Source: a virus
DNA: 14,629 bases
Direction: 5' to 3' (one strand)
Virus genome (UHGV): UHGV-0103744
Under the pieces are notes generated by a model. The model saw only the letters and a list, made by a program, of their open reading frames with translations, ran no database searches and had not been told where the DNA came from. The position numbers were made by a program, and so were the translations under genes. This document shows, piece by piece, positions 5,181 through 11,919 of the stretch (within the stretch, counting starts at the first letter, position 1; every line of letters begins with the position of its first letter).

Positions 5181-5208
5181 AAAAGAAAACCCGGCACGAC
5201 GGCCGGGG
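5181..5208 (-). terminator. Intrinsic terminator ending the repressor-proximal (cI + 287-aa gene) transcription unit
   Basis: On the - strand, GC-rich hairpin CCCGGC-cgtcgt-GCCGGG (5190-5207) followed by UUUUCUUUU (+ strand 5181-5189); begins 4 bp downstream of the 287-aa ORF stop. Confidence 0.7.
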
Positions 5209-5211
5209 AAA

Positions 5212-6075
5212 TCATTTCGCATCTACAATAAATAACCTGTTTATCTGGCCTTTTTTAACAGTAGCCTTTGCGGTTATAGTGAATACTGCAGATGGATCAC
5301 CTTTGGTTGATATATATGCACTAAGAGCTCTAATATACGGGTTATTCTTCTTTCCTGCAGCTGGATCGCTAATTTCAGCAGTGATTCTCTTTTTTGAGTC
5401 ATCACCATCTAAAATTATTTTAGCTGTCATATTTTGTGCATCAAATTCTGTAAGAAAAGCACGATACTCACGAAGACCGAGAACTTCATCATCATCAAGC
5501 CTATCAATTTCAGCTTTATCTCTCTCGTTAACTTTTAGAAGGCAGCCGTCAACATTTGTTGCAACACTTATCTGATCGCAAGTATTACCAATAGGTGATA
5601 CTGCCTGCCTTACAGAGGGGCGAAGCTCTACAGCCATTCGGTCAATCAAAGAGATCAACTTATCAATGGTTCCAGCATCCTTGTTTCCTAGTGCCTCTAT
5701 GGCCTTTTCAAGTGACTGCTGCAAAGCTTTCATTTCATCTTTCTTGTTAGAATTTCTCGCAAAAATATATTGTAGTATTGCGCCAAGTATAGTTGCGGCG
5801 ATCCCCGAGAACAACTGGTTCTGAGTGGCGAAGTTAAGAACTGCTTCAAGAGTAAAGCAGTTAGCTTTTGCTTCGCGTGCGTAAACCTTAACTTCCTGAT
5901 AATTAATGTATTTACTATATTTTTGTGTAACAGAGAAAGAAGCTGCTGTTGAGAGAACTTTAGAAAAACCCTTTAGGGATTCTCCTAGGCAGTTCAAATC
6001 TATTTCATGATTTAAAGCATCTTTTCCGTCATACCTAAAAGAGATTTTTATATCCTGTAAAGCGTCACAATCCAT
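5212..6075 (-). CDS. Orphan 287-aa protein in the rexAB-equivalent slot (downstream of and co-oriented with cI); one predicted hydrophobic helix; function unknown
   Basis: Long uninterrupted ORF; visibly AT-rich relative to flanking phage genes; lies between the cI stop (6142) and a strong terminator (5181-5208); hydrophobic segment [19 protein letters not shown] followed by a charged, helical-looking region. No family recognised. Confidence 0.7.
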
Positions 6076-6141
6076 AAATCGCTCTCGTCTAATTCTAATT
6101 AAATTTACTATCCCCTAAACGACTCATCAGCACAGTACTGA

Positions 6142-6831
6142 TTATCCATGTTTCCTGTACGTCTGGGGCATGCTCCCAATAACCTTACCGAAGATGAACA
6201 CCCGGTTCATCTCGTCTTTCTCGATCGGGTCCCACGGTGAGTAGCTCTTGTTATCAGAGATAACCAGCAGCTTATCCTTCATCATTTGCAGGCGCTTTAC
6301 ATGGGCGGTGTCGTCGTACAGAAACGCATAGATGCCATCACCGTCGAAAGATTTAACCGTGATATCAACGAACAGCAGATCACCTGGTTCGATCGTTCCT
6401 GACATGCTGTCACCACGCACGTTAATGATGCGGATATTTTCTGCCTTCCTACCATCGAACATGTGACGAGCATCGTCAAACGAGTACTCAACCGAGCGTA
6501 GAACTTCTACAAACTCACGGTTGATGACTCCCGGCCCGGCACTCACTTCTATATCAAGAACGTCAATCTTAAAGTATTTGGAATGGCTGACAGTTGATTG
6601 TATTGGTTGCACTGTACTGTCTGACATATTTCCAACGCCAGAAGATAACCATTCTGCGCGCACACCCAAAGCGTTCGCGATCTCCACGATTTTAGTTGTT
6701 TGGTTAGCTTTCCCTGTTTCGATTTTCTGAATAGCAGCTTGGCTAACCCCGACCAAATCCCCAAGCGCCTTTTGTGTAAGGCCTCGCGCTAATCTGGCTT
6801 CTTTAAGTCTTTCTGAGAGTGTTGTTTTCAT
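6142..6831 (-). CDS. cI: CI-type prophage repressor: N-terminal HTH (XRE family), C-terminal LexA/S24 autopeptidase domain
   Basis: HTH region LTQKALGDLVGVSQAAIQKIETG; S24 signature GDSMSGT (catalytic Ser) and downstream Lys (VKRL). Divergent from the cro-like gene across an operator-rich 104-bp region. Start taken at MKTTL (6829-6831), because the longer 251-aa ORF would begin inside the PR operator. Confidence 0.85.
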   Translation of the reverse strand: MKTTLSERLKEARLARGLTQKALGDLVGVSQAAIQKIETGKANQTTKIVEIANALGVRAEWLSSGVGNMSDSTVQPIQSTVSHSKYFKIDVLDIEVSAGPGVINREFVEVLRSVEYSFDDARHMFDGRKAENIRIINVRGDSMSGTIEPGDLLFVDITVKSFDGDGIYAFLYDDTAHVKRLQMMKDKLLVISDNKSYSPWDPIEKDEMNRVFIFGKVIGSMPQTYRKHG

Positions 6832-8791: not shown

Positions 8792-9489
8792 AAAACATCG
8801 CCGCACAGATGGTTAACTTTGACCGTGAGCAGATGCGCCGGATCGCCAACAACATGCCGGAACAGTACGACGAAAAGCCGCAGGTACAACAGGTAGCGCA
8901 GATCATCAATGGTGTGTTCAGCCAGTTACTGGCAACTTTCCCGGCGAGCCTGGCTAACCGGGACCAGAACGAACTGAACGAAATCCGCCGCCAGTGGGTT
9001 CTGGCTTTCCGGGAAAACGGGATCACCACGATGGAACAGGTTAACGCAGGAATGCGCGTAGCCCGTCGGCAGAATCGACCATTCCTGCCATCACCCGGGC
9101 AGTTTGTTGCCTGGTGCCGGGAAGAAGCATCCGTTACCGCCGGGCTGCCAAACGCCAGCGAGCTGGTTGATATGGTTTACGAGTATTGCCGGAAGCGTGG
9201 CCTGTATCCGGACGCAGAGTCTTATCCATGGAAATCAAACGCGCACTACTGGCTGGTTACCAACCTGTACCAGAACATGCGGGCCAATGCGCTTACTGAT
9301 GCGGAATTACGGCGCAAGGCTGCCGATGAACTGTCCTGTATGACCGCGCGAATTAACCGTGGTGAGGCGATACCTGAACCAGTAAAACAGCTTCCTGTCA
9401 TGGGCGGTAGACCTCTAAATCGTGCACAGGCTCTGGCGAAGATCGCAGAAATCAAAGCTAAGTTTGGGCTGAAAGGAGCAAGTGTATGA
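8788..9489 (+). CDS. P: Replication protein P (DnaB helicase loader), 233 aa
   Basis: Essentially matches lambda P as I remember it over the full 233 aa (MKNIAAQMVNFDREQMRRIANNMPEQYDEKPQ...); start overlaps the O stop. Confidence 0.93.
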   Translation: MKNIAAQMVNFDREQMRRIANNMPEQYDEKPQVQQVAQIINGVFSQLLATFPASLANRDQNELNEIRRQWVLAFRENGITTMEQVNAGMRVARRQNRPFLPSPGQFVAWCREEASVTAGLPNASELVDMVYEYCRKRGLYPDAESYPWKSNAHYWLVTNLYQNMRANALTDAELRRKAADELSCMTARINRGEAIPEPVKQLPVMGGRPLNRAQALAKIAEIKAKFGLKGASV

Positions 9490-9779
9490 CGGGCAAAGAG
9501 GCAATTATTTATTACCTGGGGACGCATAAGAGCTTCTGTGCGCAGGACGTTGCCGCGGTAACAGGCGCAACAGTAACCAGCATAAATCAGGCTGCGGCTA
9601 AAATGGCGCGGACAGGAATCTTAGTTATTGATGGTAAGGTCTGGCGAACGGTGTATTACCGGTTCGCTACCAGGGAAGAACGGGAAGGAAAGGTGAGCAC
9701 GAATCTGATTTTCAAGGAGTGTCGCCAGAGTGCCGCGATGAAGCGGGTGTTGGCATTTTATCGCGGCAATTTTCAATAG
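9486..9779 (+). CDS. ren: Ren-like protein (97 aa)
   Basis: MTGKEAIIYYLGTHKSFCAQDVAAVTGATVTSINQAAAKMARTGILVIDGKVWRTVYYRFATREEREGK... matches lambda Ren from memory; start overlaps the P stop. Confidence 0.85.
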   Translation: MTGKEAIIYYLGTHKSFCAQDVAAVTGATVTSINQAAAKMARTGILVIDGKVWRTVYYRFATREEREGKVSTNLIFKECRQSAAMKRVLAFYRGNFQ

Positions 9780-9815
9780 ACTATGTACATAAAAATATCA
9801 TTTTTTAATACATGT

Positions 9816-10007
9816 CTAATTATTGGACGAAATTGGTTTTTGCTTTGGTTTAGTTAGCCTAGCAATCAAGCCAGAGGCAATAATGATGATCCAAGCAATT
9901 TGATGCAATGCTACTCCAATATAAGAACCTTTATAGATAATAAAGGCATAGATCGCTAGAAACGAAATAAATATCCATAACGAAAGTTGATAAATTTTGG
10001 CGCGCAT
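9816..10007 (-). CDS. Possible small hydrophobic membrane protein (63 aa from first ATG), opposite strand, in AT-rich cargo
   Basis: Two hydrophobic stretches (LSLWIFISFLAIYAFIIY and IAWIIIIASGLIA); AT-rich context; the track start (10022) is a TTG and no convincing RBS is seen, so this may not be a real gene. Confidence 0.3.
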   Translation of the reverse strand: MRAKIYQLSLWIFISFLAIYAFIIYKGSYIGVALHQIAWIIIIASGLIARLTKPKQKPISSNN

Positions 10008-10263
10008 ATTTAATCCAATCAATCAGAAAGACGAGTAATCATAGAGGTACTATCACCCGGGTAACTATTGCTATTATGAACGGATAGGATAGAGGCTTCA
10101 ATAACATATGCATCAAGTATGATGGAATATGTAGATGAAAATGACTTGTGTCAAATTTGTGGAAATGAGTACCATGTTTCTCTGAAATTGATGTCGTTAA
10201 TGGCTAGTGATAGTGAACTTTTTTACTTTATAATTCCTTTGGTTATAACAATAAGGTAAATTT

Positions 10264-10824
10264 ATGAAGAAGATAATATTATTAGCCATGATTATTGGTT
10301 CTTTAACAGGTTGCGCTAGTGTGCCACCATTGAATTTTTCAACACCTAACGTGGGAGTTAGCCAGAAAAAAATAGATGCTGAAATTAAGTCATTAACGGT
10401 ATCACTTGCTCGTCCAGATGAGCAGAAAGGGGATATCACTGCTGGTATGGAGGCTATAACTCCAATTTGGCGTGAATCTTTGCAGGAAGCACTCGACCGA
10501 ATGACTATTTTTCGTGATAGTTCACCAAATACGGTTAGCTTAAATGTTAAAGTGTTGGCTCTTGACGTTCCTGCTTTTGGTGTTTCAATGACAACTAAAG
10601 CAATTGCAAGGTATGAAATAATCAACCGTGCGAATGGTGATATTATATATACGCAGGATATTGAGTCTACCGGCACTGTTCCAGCCAGTTACGCATTCTA
10701 CGGTATTGTTCGAGCACGCGAATCTGTTAATCGCGCGGTGCAAAACAACATAACGCAGTTCTTGCAAGCATTAGAAAGTGTTGATCTTTCTCGTCCAATG
10801 TTTCCTGTTAGGGTAGCTAAATGA
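10264..10824 (+). CDS. Predicted lipoprotein (186 aa), cargo gene 1
   Basis: Signal peptide with lipobox MKKIILLAMIIGSLTG-C; AT-rich codon usage; stop overlaps the start of the next lipoprotein gene (ATGA). No family recognised. Confidence 0.7.
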   Translation: MKKIILLAMIIGSLTGCASVPPLNFSTPNVGVSQKKIDAEIKSLTVSLARPDEQKGDITAGMEAITPIWRESLQEALDRMTIFRDSSPNTVSLNVKVLALDVPAFGVSMTTKAIARYEIINRANGDIIYTQDIESTGTVPASYAFYGIVRARESVNRAVQNNITQFLQALESVDLSRPMFPVRVAK

Positions 10825-11273
10825 AGCGATTATTCGTAATTGCTCCACTCTTAGTGTTGGTTGGATGCGCACAAAATATATCGCCAAATAGTTATTCTGT
10901 TGGCTCTGTGGGCATGGTTAATCGAACTATCGCTGGTACAGTTATTAGTGCCAGGGGGGTTGATATCAGTGGGACTTCCGCGTTAGGCGGGACTGCTGGG
11001 GCTGCCGTGGGGGCAACCGCTGGTTCTGCGCTTGGTGGGGGAGTTCGTTCTAATATCGTTGGTGCCGTTGGTGGTGCAGTCATTGGTGGTATTGCCGGGG
11101 CAGCAATCGAATCTTCAGCAACAAAACAAACAGGCATGGAATATGTTGTCGAAACTGAGAATGGGAATTTAATGACCATTGTTCAAGGCAAAGATCCGTT
11201 ATTTACTCAAGGAAGTAAGGTCCTTGTTTTATACGGAAACCCTTCTCGCATAATAACAGACCCGCGTCACTAA
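10821..11273 (+). CDS. Predicted glycine-zipper lipoprotein (150 aa; SlyB/Pcp-like architecture), cargo gene 2
   Basis: Lipobox MKRLFVIAPLLVLVG-C; long Gly/Ala-rich zipper GTSALGGTAGAAVGATAGSALGGGVRSNIVGAVGGAVIGGIAGAAI typical of Gly-zipper outer-membrane lipoproteins; translationally coupled to the upstream gene. Confidence 0.7.
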   Translation: MKRLFVIAPLLVLVGCAQNISPNSYSVGSVGMVNRTIAGTVISARGVDISGTSALGGTAGAAVGATAGSALGGGVRSNIVGAVGGAVIGGIAGAAIESSATKQTGMEYVVETENGNLMTIVQGKDPLFTQGSKVLVLYGNPSRIITDPRH

Positions 11274-11313
11274 CATACCTTTTGATTTTGTAAAATCAAT
11301 TCGTAATAATAAA

Positions 11314-11342
11314 GTCATCGGAGCTTGAACAACTCCGGTGAC
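11314..11342. terminator. Long hairpin after the lipoprotein pair; candidate (possibly bidirectional) terminator
   Basis: 10-bp stem gtcatcggag / ctccggtgac (one G-U) with 9-nt loop; flanked by an A-rich tract on the + strand upstream (T-rich on the - strand) but with no T-tract on the + strand downstream, so + strand termination efficiency is doubtful. Confidence 0.35.
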
Positions 11343-11463
11343 TTCTGCGCTAAACGGGGACGTTTATGCGCACATACAATCCAAACTCTCTTCTCCCTTC
11401 ACAGATGCAGAAATGCACCTGCGATTTTTTGTATCCTGCGTTTGACCTCTGCGGAGGTGAAGC

Positions 11464-11919
11464 GTGAACCTCCCACAAGACGGCATCAAATTACATCGCG
11501 GCAACTTCACCGCTATCGGCCAGCAGATCCAGCCTTATCTGGAGGACGGAAAATGCTTTCGCATGGTGCTTAAACCGTGGCGCGAGAGACGCAGTCTTTC
11601 CCAGAATGCACTCAGCCACATGTGGTACAGCGAAATCAGTGAATACCTCATCAGCAGGGGTAAAACGTTCGCCACTCCAGCTTGGGTAAAAGATGCTCTC
11701 AAACACACATATCTCGGTTATGAAACCAAAGACCTGGTTGATGTCGTAACCGGTGATATCACCACTATCCAGTCGTTACGCCATACCTCCGATCTTGATA
11801 CCGGAGAGATGTATGTCTTCCTGTGTAAGGTTGAAGCCTGGGCGATGAATATTGGCTGCCACCTGACTATTCCGCCGAGCTGCGAGTTCCAGCTGCTGCG
11901 CGATAAGCAGGAGGCGTAA
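11464..11919 (+). CDS. ybcN: YbcN-like DUF1367 protein in the ninB position (151 aa, GTG start)
   Basis: Matches my memory of DLP12 YbcN ([19 protein letters not shown]...[20 protein letters not shown]...); GGAGGTG RBS before the GTG; followed by ninE, ybcO and rusA in DLP12 order. Confidence 0.7.

Follow-up and report, generated by a model that had tools for sequence, protein, structure and literature searches.

The virus genome UHGV-0103744 was analysed as one stretch of 14,629 nucleotides, referred to here as the window, in which an island of about 1.5 kb separates the genes ren and ybcN of a lambda-like E. coli prophage. The island encodes two lipoproteins, designated ORF1 and ORF2 (ORF, open reading frame), whose frames overlap by the four nucleotides ATGA. 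A preliminary description, made from the sequence alone, had placed this pair, with the lipoboxes LTG-C and LVG-C, between the end of ren (9779) and the start of ybcN (11464), and the genes were found exactly there. The island is not a phage invention: it holds a bacterial module that has been captured by phages repeatedly. The features of the region, in window coordinates, are as follows.

9486-9779, plus strand: ren; an identical protein is named 'protein ren' by the annotation pipeline PGAP.
9748-9779, plus strand: left junction, comprising the last ren codons; the likeness to island-free phages ends here (160+ phage records, 9748-9761).
9780-10263, no strand: AT-rich leader with a guanine-plus-cytosine (GC) fraction of about 0.32-0.34, specific to the E. 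coli version.
9816-10007, minus strand: orphan ORF of 63 amino acids (MRAKIY...), hydrophobic, hypothetical in the PhiR30_1 annotation.
10207-10234, plus strand: promoter-like site GTGATA, 16-nucleotide spacer, TATAAT (score 10/12).
10253-10256, plus strand: Shine-Dalgarno-like AAGG, 7 nucleotides 5' of the ORF1 ATG, read from the sequence.
10264-10824, plus strand: ORF1, a lipoprotein of 186 amino acids; signal peptide MKKIILLAMIIGSLTG followed by CAS, lipobox LTG-C, Ala at +2.
10821-10824, plus strand: ATGA start/stop overlap of ORF1 and ORF2, likewise read from the sequence; translational coupling.
10821-11273, plus strand: ORF2, a lipoprotein of 150 amino acids; signal peptide MKRLFVIAPLLVLVG followed by CAQ, lipobox LVG-C, Ala at +2.
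11280-11343, plus strand: right junction with the phage-82-type backbone; putative -35/-10 at 11282-11310 and inverted repeat at 11313-11343, outside the island.
From 11464: ybcN (NCBIfam PRK09741, E 6e-83).

Both lipoboxes fit the pattern [LVI][ASTVI][GAS]C. The preliminary description had likened the second lipoprotein to SlyB, and the likeness extends to the whole protein. A phmmer search of all PDB sequences aligned ORF2 with SlyB (7ojf) end to end (residues 2-149 against 3-155, E 1.3e-14), while a profile of 35 ORF2 homologues aligned with E. coli SlyB over 141 columns in hhalign (probability 98.6%). The AlphaFold model of ORF2 is composed of a strand, a helical hairpin (about 55-101, with helices at 55-71 and 75-101) and further strands, and its sole significant Foldseek match is SlyB13-BamA (7ojf_A, E 2e-8, template modelling (TM) scores 0.54/0.58). 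By these comparisons, ORF2 is a full-length SlyB homologue of the predicted glycine-zipper outer-membrane lipoprotein type. Its scores against the Pfam glycine-zipper families fall below the gathering cut-offs (PF05433, 21.1 bits against 24.2; PF13488, 16.9 bits against 25); PF13488 is carried by many ORF2 homologues. In PHROGs, the protein falls in phrog_13877, annotated 'function unknown'.

SlyB of E. coli and Salmonella (PhoP-regulated; 7ojf/7ojg) and ORF2 are 27-33% identical over the whole length of ORF2, and both possess a lipobox, an N-terminal strand region, a helical hairpin (in ORF2 of putative glycine-zipper type) and C-terminal strands. They differ in that ORF2 is coupled to an upstream partner gene and has no PhoP box, whereas slyB is monocistronic; furthermore, rings of ORF2 are predicted only. 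ORF2 is an extra SlyB paralogue, horizontally acquired, that stands beside the host's own slyB.

The model of ORF1 is confident (predicted local distance difference test (pLDDT) 86, predicted TM score 0.80) and displays the two-helix, four-strand alpha/beta fold of a set of outer-membrane lipoproteins (the LptE/PqiC(DUF330)/PelC group and the core of TraT). The resemblance to LptE, PqiC, PelC and CsgG-type lipoproteins is one of fold, with a sequence identity of 8-13% and no Pfam or NCBIfam match of these families. Indeed, neither ORF1 nor any of 36 homologues matched a Pfam or NCBIfam family of any kind, and the partner genes lptD, pqiAB and pelB are absent from the varied neighbourhoods of the family; ORF1 does not belong to the LptE, PqiC or PelC sequence families. 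The family to which it does belong is uncharacterised and large (512 close matches; 966 representative clusters at E up to 1e-3), corresponds to phrog_12521 ('function unknown') and includes a few long variants, none of which is fused to a SlyB-like domain.

Homologues of ORF1 (P0001, P0003, P0021 and P0041 among others) are widely catalogued as 'UDP-N-acetylglucosamine acyltransferase' (NCBI and UniRef) or, in more recent PGAP records, as 'YajG family lipoprotein'. Comparisons of domain, profile and fold support neither name. An LpxA-type acyltransferase was rejected on the absence of any hexapeptide-repeat match in Pfam and NCBIfam; moreover, the model shows an alpha/beta sandwich where a left-handed beta-helix would be expected, and a lipoprotein signal peptide is present. 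The acyltransferase name is a propagated error. Membership of YajG (PF03923) was rejected in turn, with no Pfam match in ORF1 or in 36 family members; the ORF1 family profile aligned with K-12 YajG in hhalign over 52 N-terminal columns only, signal peptide included (probability 76%).

The distribution of the pair was established by a locus scan taken at one genome per species, which gave 59 loci spanning Enterobacterales, Xanthomonadales, Burkholderiales, other beta-proteobacteria and several alpha-proteobacteria. At 55 of them, the ORF2 homologue lies directly downstream of ORF1 on the same strand. Where both frames could be delimited (52 loci), both lipoboxes are present without exception and the 4-nucleotide overlap is kept in 44, and such recurrence argues that neither the lipoboxes nor the overlap arose by chance. 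The pairwise distance matrices of ORF1 and ORF2 are correlated (r = 0.89), and the GC of the cassette is below that of its flanks in 45 of 53 loci. Clustering of the flanking ORFs at the 59 loci revealed no third gene conserved across genera, shared neighbours being confined to Stenotrophomonas. The surroundings are indeed diverse: umuDC and SRAP genes in K. oxytoca, toxin-antitoxin and insertion sequence (IS) genes in Bordetella, pgaABCD in Xanthomonas and a P4-type integrase in Edaphovirga. The pair is, in short, a conserved two-gene bacterial module, a self-contained operon that is mostly chromosomal and spreads horizontally.

One neighbourhood raises the question as to whether the module might be a mobile cassette of orphan immunity or protection against toxins that act in the periplasm, for instance bacteriocins or effectors of type VI secretion systems (T6SS). 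A Luteimonas locus lies about 4 kb from PAAR/Tle1 genes, and many T6SS immunity proteins are periplasmic lipoproteins. However, no toxin gene is conserved beside the cassette in any other genus, and the NCBIfam IglE match covers the signal peptide alone (E 0.04); we consider this explanation very improbable indeed. As a separate observation, one locus (L034, JBJNRH010000001.1) is labelled Nocardiopsis yanglingensis A18, yet its cassette and neighbours are those of the Stenotrophomonas loci L030 and L032. Finding a lipoprotein module of Gram-negative type in an actinobacterial assembly suggests that the assembly is contaminated or mislabelled.

The nearest copy outside E. coli is that of K. oxytoca, with protein identities of 83% and 75%. 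Between these two versions pN, the proportion of non-synonymous differences, is 0.10-0.14, while its synonymous counterpart pS is saturated at 0.77-0.85, and it was owing to this saturation that pN/pS was used instead of dN/dS. On these values, selection on the pair is estimated to be strongly purifying. With pS saturated and pN low, the conservation reflects constraint rather than recent transfer.

In IMG/VR, an ORF1 homologue was found on 38 viral contigs, 21 of them of the E. coli type, and phages have captured the module in at least four separate ways. The first is the ren-ybcN slot of E. coli phages, within the early right operon. In the second (L098-L100, GC about 0.52), the pair is part of the tail operon, where the tape measure gene and gpM flank it. 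In the third (L104-L106 and the genomic locus L027, GC about 0.65), it follows 42 nucleotides 3' of a cI-like S24 repressor gene and is co-oriented with it, which is the layout of lambda cI-rexA-rexB, seen here in Xanthomonadales prophages. In the fourth (L101, L107 and L108), the pair and the repressor gene are convergent. Five further contigs (L110-L114) possess an ORF1 homologue followed by a different small secreted protein, for which the non-SlyB-like products at 6564-6851 of L110 (95 amino acids) and 6611-7042 of L111 (143 amino acids) are examples, and ORF1-family proteins may work with such alternative partners. Finally, a Serratia marcescens locus (L063, 6001-7125) carries an N-terminally truncated ORF1 and an intact ORF2, followed by a fragment resembling the start of the L098 tape measure protein; the locus resembles a degenerate remnant of the cassette in its tail-module form.

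The first two layouts bear on the idea of a lytic-cycle helper, that is, a pair expressed from the early right (or tail) operon that conditions the outer membrane of the infected cell, for instance so that the envelope fails later or so that progeny virions do not stick to cell debris. The cassette of the window points the same way as O-P-ren-nin, and no terminator belonging to it precedes the backbone; that of L098-L100 is co-oriented with the tail genes. Most copies, however, are chromosomal and have their own terminators, other prophages link the cassette to the repressor gene, and 162 of the 163 ren-sharing phage records lack it. We regard a helper role as decidedly improbable.

The preliminary description had raised a different comparison, with the lipoproteins Cor and Llp, which would make the pair a means of superinfection exclusion in which one or both lipoproteins bind and inactivate the receptor of the carrier phage. 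Cor (phi80/N15/T1), Llp (T5) and Bor (lambda) are likewise small phage-borne outer-membrane lipoproteins and optional cargo, lipoprotein cargo with such a role has precedent in temperate phages (bioRxiv 10.64898/2026.03.26.714494), and the placement of the cassette among tail genes in L098-L100 would suit such a role. In contrast to the pair, however, Cor, Llp and Bor are single genes, and they share no sequence or family similarity with ORF1 or ORF2 in Pfam or PHROGs; neither protein matched a Pfam or PHROG family with an exclusion annotation. Cor and Llp are specific for FhuA, whereas the pair spans three proteobacterial classes: its proteins are 55-85% identical across alpha-, beta- and gamma-proteobacteria with unrelated receptors and on four unrelated phage backbones, and most copies lie outside intact prophages. 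Receptor masking is improbable because no similarity exists at the family level and because the module occurs in too wide a range of hosts for a single receptor, and the strong purifying selection estimated above argues in the same direction; this part of the preliminary description was not borne out.

Within E. coli the island is clearly accessory. It is present in 280 of 5426 complete genomes (about 5%), always as one chromosomal copy of at least 99% identity, and its carriers derive from humans (including clinical sources), dogs, cats, gulls, poultry, pigs, a frog and sewage, strain 042 among them. In two of the 280 genomes it is split by an IS5 or IS3 insertion (NZ_CP098858.1, H31; NZ_LR883012.1, H64). 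The carrier prophages are mosaic, with differing immunity and Q regions. Among the 163 phage records that possess this ren, only PhiR30_1 holds the island. In sibling phages, the slot is filled otherwise: by ybcK-ybcL-ybcM in PhiR34_1 (in agreement with the ybc genes that the preliminary description had listed at this position in DLP12), by Rha-type and unknown genes in PhiR5_1, and by the anti-phage gene PD-Lambda-1 (PADLOC, E 2e-198) in the ECOR phage PhiR26_1 (L076, 791-2293). The island is therefore, as had been proposed, horizontally acquired optional cargo in a variable slot of a lambda-like prophage, and the slot marks a defence and cargo hotspot of lambdoid prophages.

The limits of this cargo differ from those first given. 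The preliminary description had drawn an AT-rich island from 9780 to 11345; an accessory segment does lie between ren and ybcN, but it extends from about 9755 to 11279, and the features at 11282-11343 belong to the backbone. On the left, homology to other ren-sharing phages ends at 9748-9761, within the 3' end of ren; on the right, homology to phage 82 and PhiR34_1 resumes at 11280. The AT-richness holds for the left two-thirds (GC 0.32-0.41 over 9750-10800, against about 0.52 in the flanks) but not for the ORF2 half (10800-11250), where GC is 0.51 because of the abundance of Gly/Ala codons.

These data also bear on the term 'moron', which the preliminary description had applied. Presence or absence at one position among relatives and an atypical base composition were both found. 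A terminator was not: from the ORF2 stop (11273) to the backbone (11280) there is none in the E. coli copy, whereas the non-phage copies have one, the cassettes of K. oxytoca, Serratia and Edaphovirga each ending with a clear hairpin followed by a T-run. Expression from the repressed prophage would have indirect support at most, from the repressor-linked layout of L104, which belongs to another phage lineage. The strict definition (in the Hendrix/Juhala sense) thus applies only partly, since the island's own promoter is at best putative and a terminator is lacking in the E. coli copy. The hairpin at 11313-11343 was rejected as an island terminator: it has no T-run and is part of the phage-82-type backbone.

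The company that the cassette keeps leads to its main rival function, a broad surface exclusion or defence in which a TraT-like cork, made of an LptE-fold ring on a ring of membrane-inserted hairpins, would act against adsorption or DNA entry of incoming phages, conjugation or contact-dependent attack. Defence systems are known to accumulate in prophage hotspots (bioRxiv 10.1101/2022.05.12.491691), and PD-Lambda-1 occupies the ren-ybcN slot in PhiR26_1. The cassette of Xanthomonadales prophages takes the position of rexAB directly 3' of the repressor gene, phages have captured the module repeatedly, and some chromosomal copies lie near defence-like genes (HEC-01A-like, PDC-S02-like). TraT, the IncF lipoprotein of surface exclusion and serum resistance (9e2v, 9fs5), unites in a single chain of a decamer an LptE-like core and two transmembrane helices, which ORF1 and ORF2 would supply separately. 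Against this, neither ORF1 nor ORF2 (nor the 63-amino-acid minus-strand ORF) matches any PADLOC defence model, many copies are chromosomal and syntenic across Stenotrophomonas species in the manner of ordinary envelope genes, and the slow evolution of the pair is unusual for an arms-race protein. The likeness to TraT is an analogy at the level of fold, not membership: there is no sequence similarity and no Pfam TraT match, and the structural match of TraT to ORF2 is weak (E 0.07, TM 0.29). Lambda rexAB, PD-Lambda-1 and ybcKLM follow the same genomic logic (the ren-ybcN slot, or the position behind the repressor gene), but the proteins are unrelated, and ORF1 and ORF2 are predicted outer-membrane lipoproteins, in contrast to rexAB and PD-Lambda-1, whose site of action is the cytoplasm or the inner membrane. 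On this evidence, surface exclusion is a real possibility, if a rather doubtful one. A more elaborate proposal is that the pair is a two-component barrier machine of the outer membrane, a SlyB-type hairpin ring capped by an LptE-fold ring, which would be the split counterpart of the TraT cork and, spreading among Proteobacteria and their phages, a new class of mobile envelope defence broadly excluding phage, conjugative DNA or contact-dependent attack; this we consider unlikely.

Our preferred reading, offered tentatively and perhaps wrong, is that the pair is cargo of lysogenic conversion that forms an envelope-stabilising or shielding complex in the outer membrane. Both proteins would be exported, lipidated at Cys17 (ORF1) and Cys16 (ORF2) and sorted to the outer membrane, as neither has Asp at +2 (the Lol sorting rule). 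By homology with SlyB, ORF2 would assemble into rings that enclose lipid or outer-membrane proteins, the glycine-zipper hairpins being inserted in the outer membrane. ORF1, made in step with ORF2 through the conserved 4-nucleotide overlap, may form a matching partner layer of one hetero-oligomeric complex. Several proteins with the LptE/PqiC/PelC/TraT-core fold form rings or plugs at the outer membrane, and binding of anionic glycolipid or polysaccharide is typical of them. One paper describes the LptE-like core fold as common in anionic-oligosaccharide-binding proteins and reports a decameric ring for TraT (PMC12658005). With regard to SlyB, a preprint (bioRxiv 10.64898/2025.12.22.696046, citing Janssens et al. 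2024) states that its rings enclose phospholipid, lipopolysaccharide (LPS) and outer-membrane proteins under membrane stress, and that slyB mutants are sensitive to SDS/EDTA (sodium dodecyl sulfate and ethylenediaminetetraacetic acid). The targets of the complex would be envelope components that alpha-, beta- and gamma-proteobacteria share (such as LPS, phospholipid or BAM/Lpt-type proteins), and the complex would stabilise or shield the outer membrane so that the lysogen has a tougher barrier, rather than blocking one specific receptor.

Several observations weigh against this reading of an envelope-stabilising complex. A physical complex of ORF1 with ORF2 is one that we infer only from linkage and translational coupling, and the ORF2 model is of medium confidence (pLDDT 70). 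ORF1 has no strict need of a SlyB-like partner, given that some phage contigs possess another protein in its place. Two of the phage settings place the cassette within a lytic operon (the early right one in the window, that of the tail genes in L098-L100), a placement that suits a phage-centred role at least as well as one in host fitness, and the slot in the sibling PhiR26_1 is occupied by a validated anti-phage system. Furthermore, the regulatory signals do not point to stress control. The stretch 10020-10263 contains no PhoP-box-like match, and over the whole window such matches are no more frequent than expected by chance, so that PhoP regulation as for slyB was rejected, and no other stress-regulon signature was found upstream of ORF1. 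The TATAAT that had been noted at 10229-10234, with no obvious -35, is indeed present, its upstream hexamer being GTGATA, a poor -35. This GTGATA-16-TATAAT site is a lead only, as the count of promoter-like sites in the region equals the expectation from shuffled sequence (5 against 4.7).

No paper on this pair was found, either by accession or by SlyB plus prophage, and the module appears to be undescribed. SlyB-type glycine-zipper lipoproteins have been recognised only recently as stress-induced organisers of the outer membrane, and have been studied as single chromosomal genes; what is new here is a compact two-gene module in which a SlyB-type paralogue is tied to an LptE-fold partner of its own and which moves between bacterial classes. 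The E. coli version goes by misleading database names. If it is true that the pair strengthens or shields the outer membrane, it could affect the tolerance of its carriers to antimicrobial peptides, serum or bile, or their susceptibility to phages. With only two genes, the pair is also a small system in which to study how SlyB-like rings acquire specificity. None of this biology is startling, but it is plausible, and the module, compact, widespread and mis-annotated, lends itself to direct tests.

The remaining features of the region are of lesser weight. The 280 E. coli genomes with the cassette are also the only ones with the leader DNA (9785-10255), in which PGAP has no gene; DNA similarity of the K. 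oxytoca cassette to the island is restricted to 10264-11254, the leader not being shared. The 63-amino-acid ORF on the minus strand of the leader has near-identical E. coli copies as its sole homologues and no Pfam or PHROG match. It was dropped as a conserved gene for want of any homologue outside E. coli, and is possibly a small membrane protein or a chance ORF. Rfam gave no credible RNA family match in the region.

On the backbone side of the right junction, the promoter-like site at 11282-11310 and the 31-nucleotide inverted repeat at 11313-11343 have annotated counterparts in the phage 82 record (1996), where they are labelled as putative -35/-10 and 'possible regulator-binding site' upstream of orf33/orf151. 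In the window, the two elements, conserved with phage 82, precede a 33-codon ORF and ybcN, which suggests that the ybcN-rusA block starts under separate regulation. The short repeats around the junctions resemble chance matches. One of these, an 18-nucleotide direct repeat of 83% identity between 9755-9772 (left junction, in ren) and 11490-11507 (5' end of ybcN), is probably such a match, though it lies close to the recombination junctions. Finally, a second variable cargo slot is apparent just left of the repressor gene, at 5207-6142 of the window, where otherwise collinear prophages differ: the counterpart in CP103533 holds a HipA-family kinase and a DUF3037 gene, and that in PhiR30_1 holds other genes.

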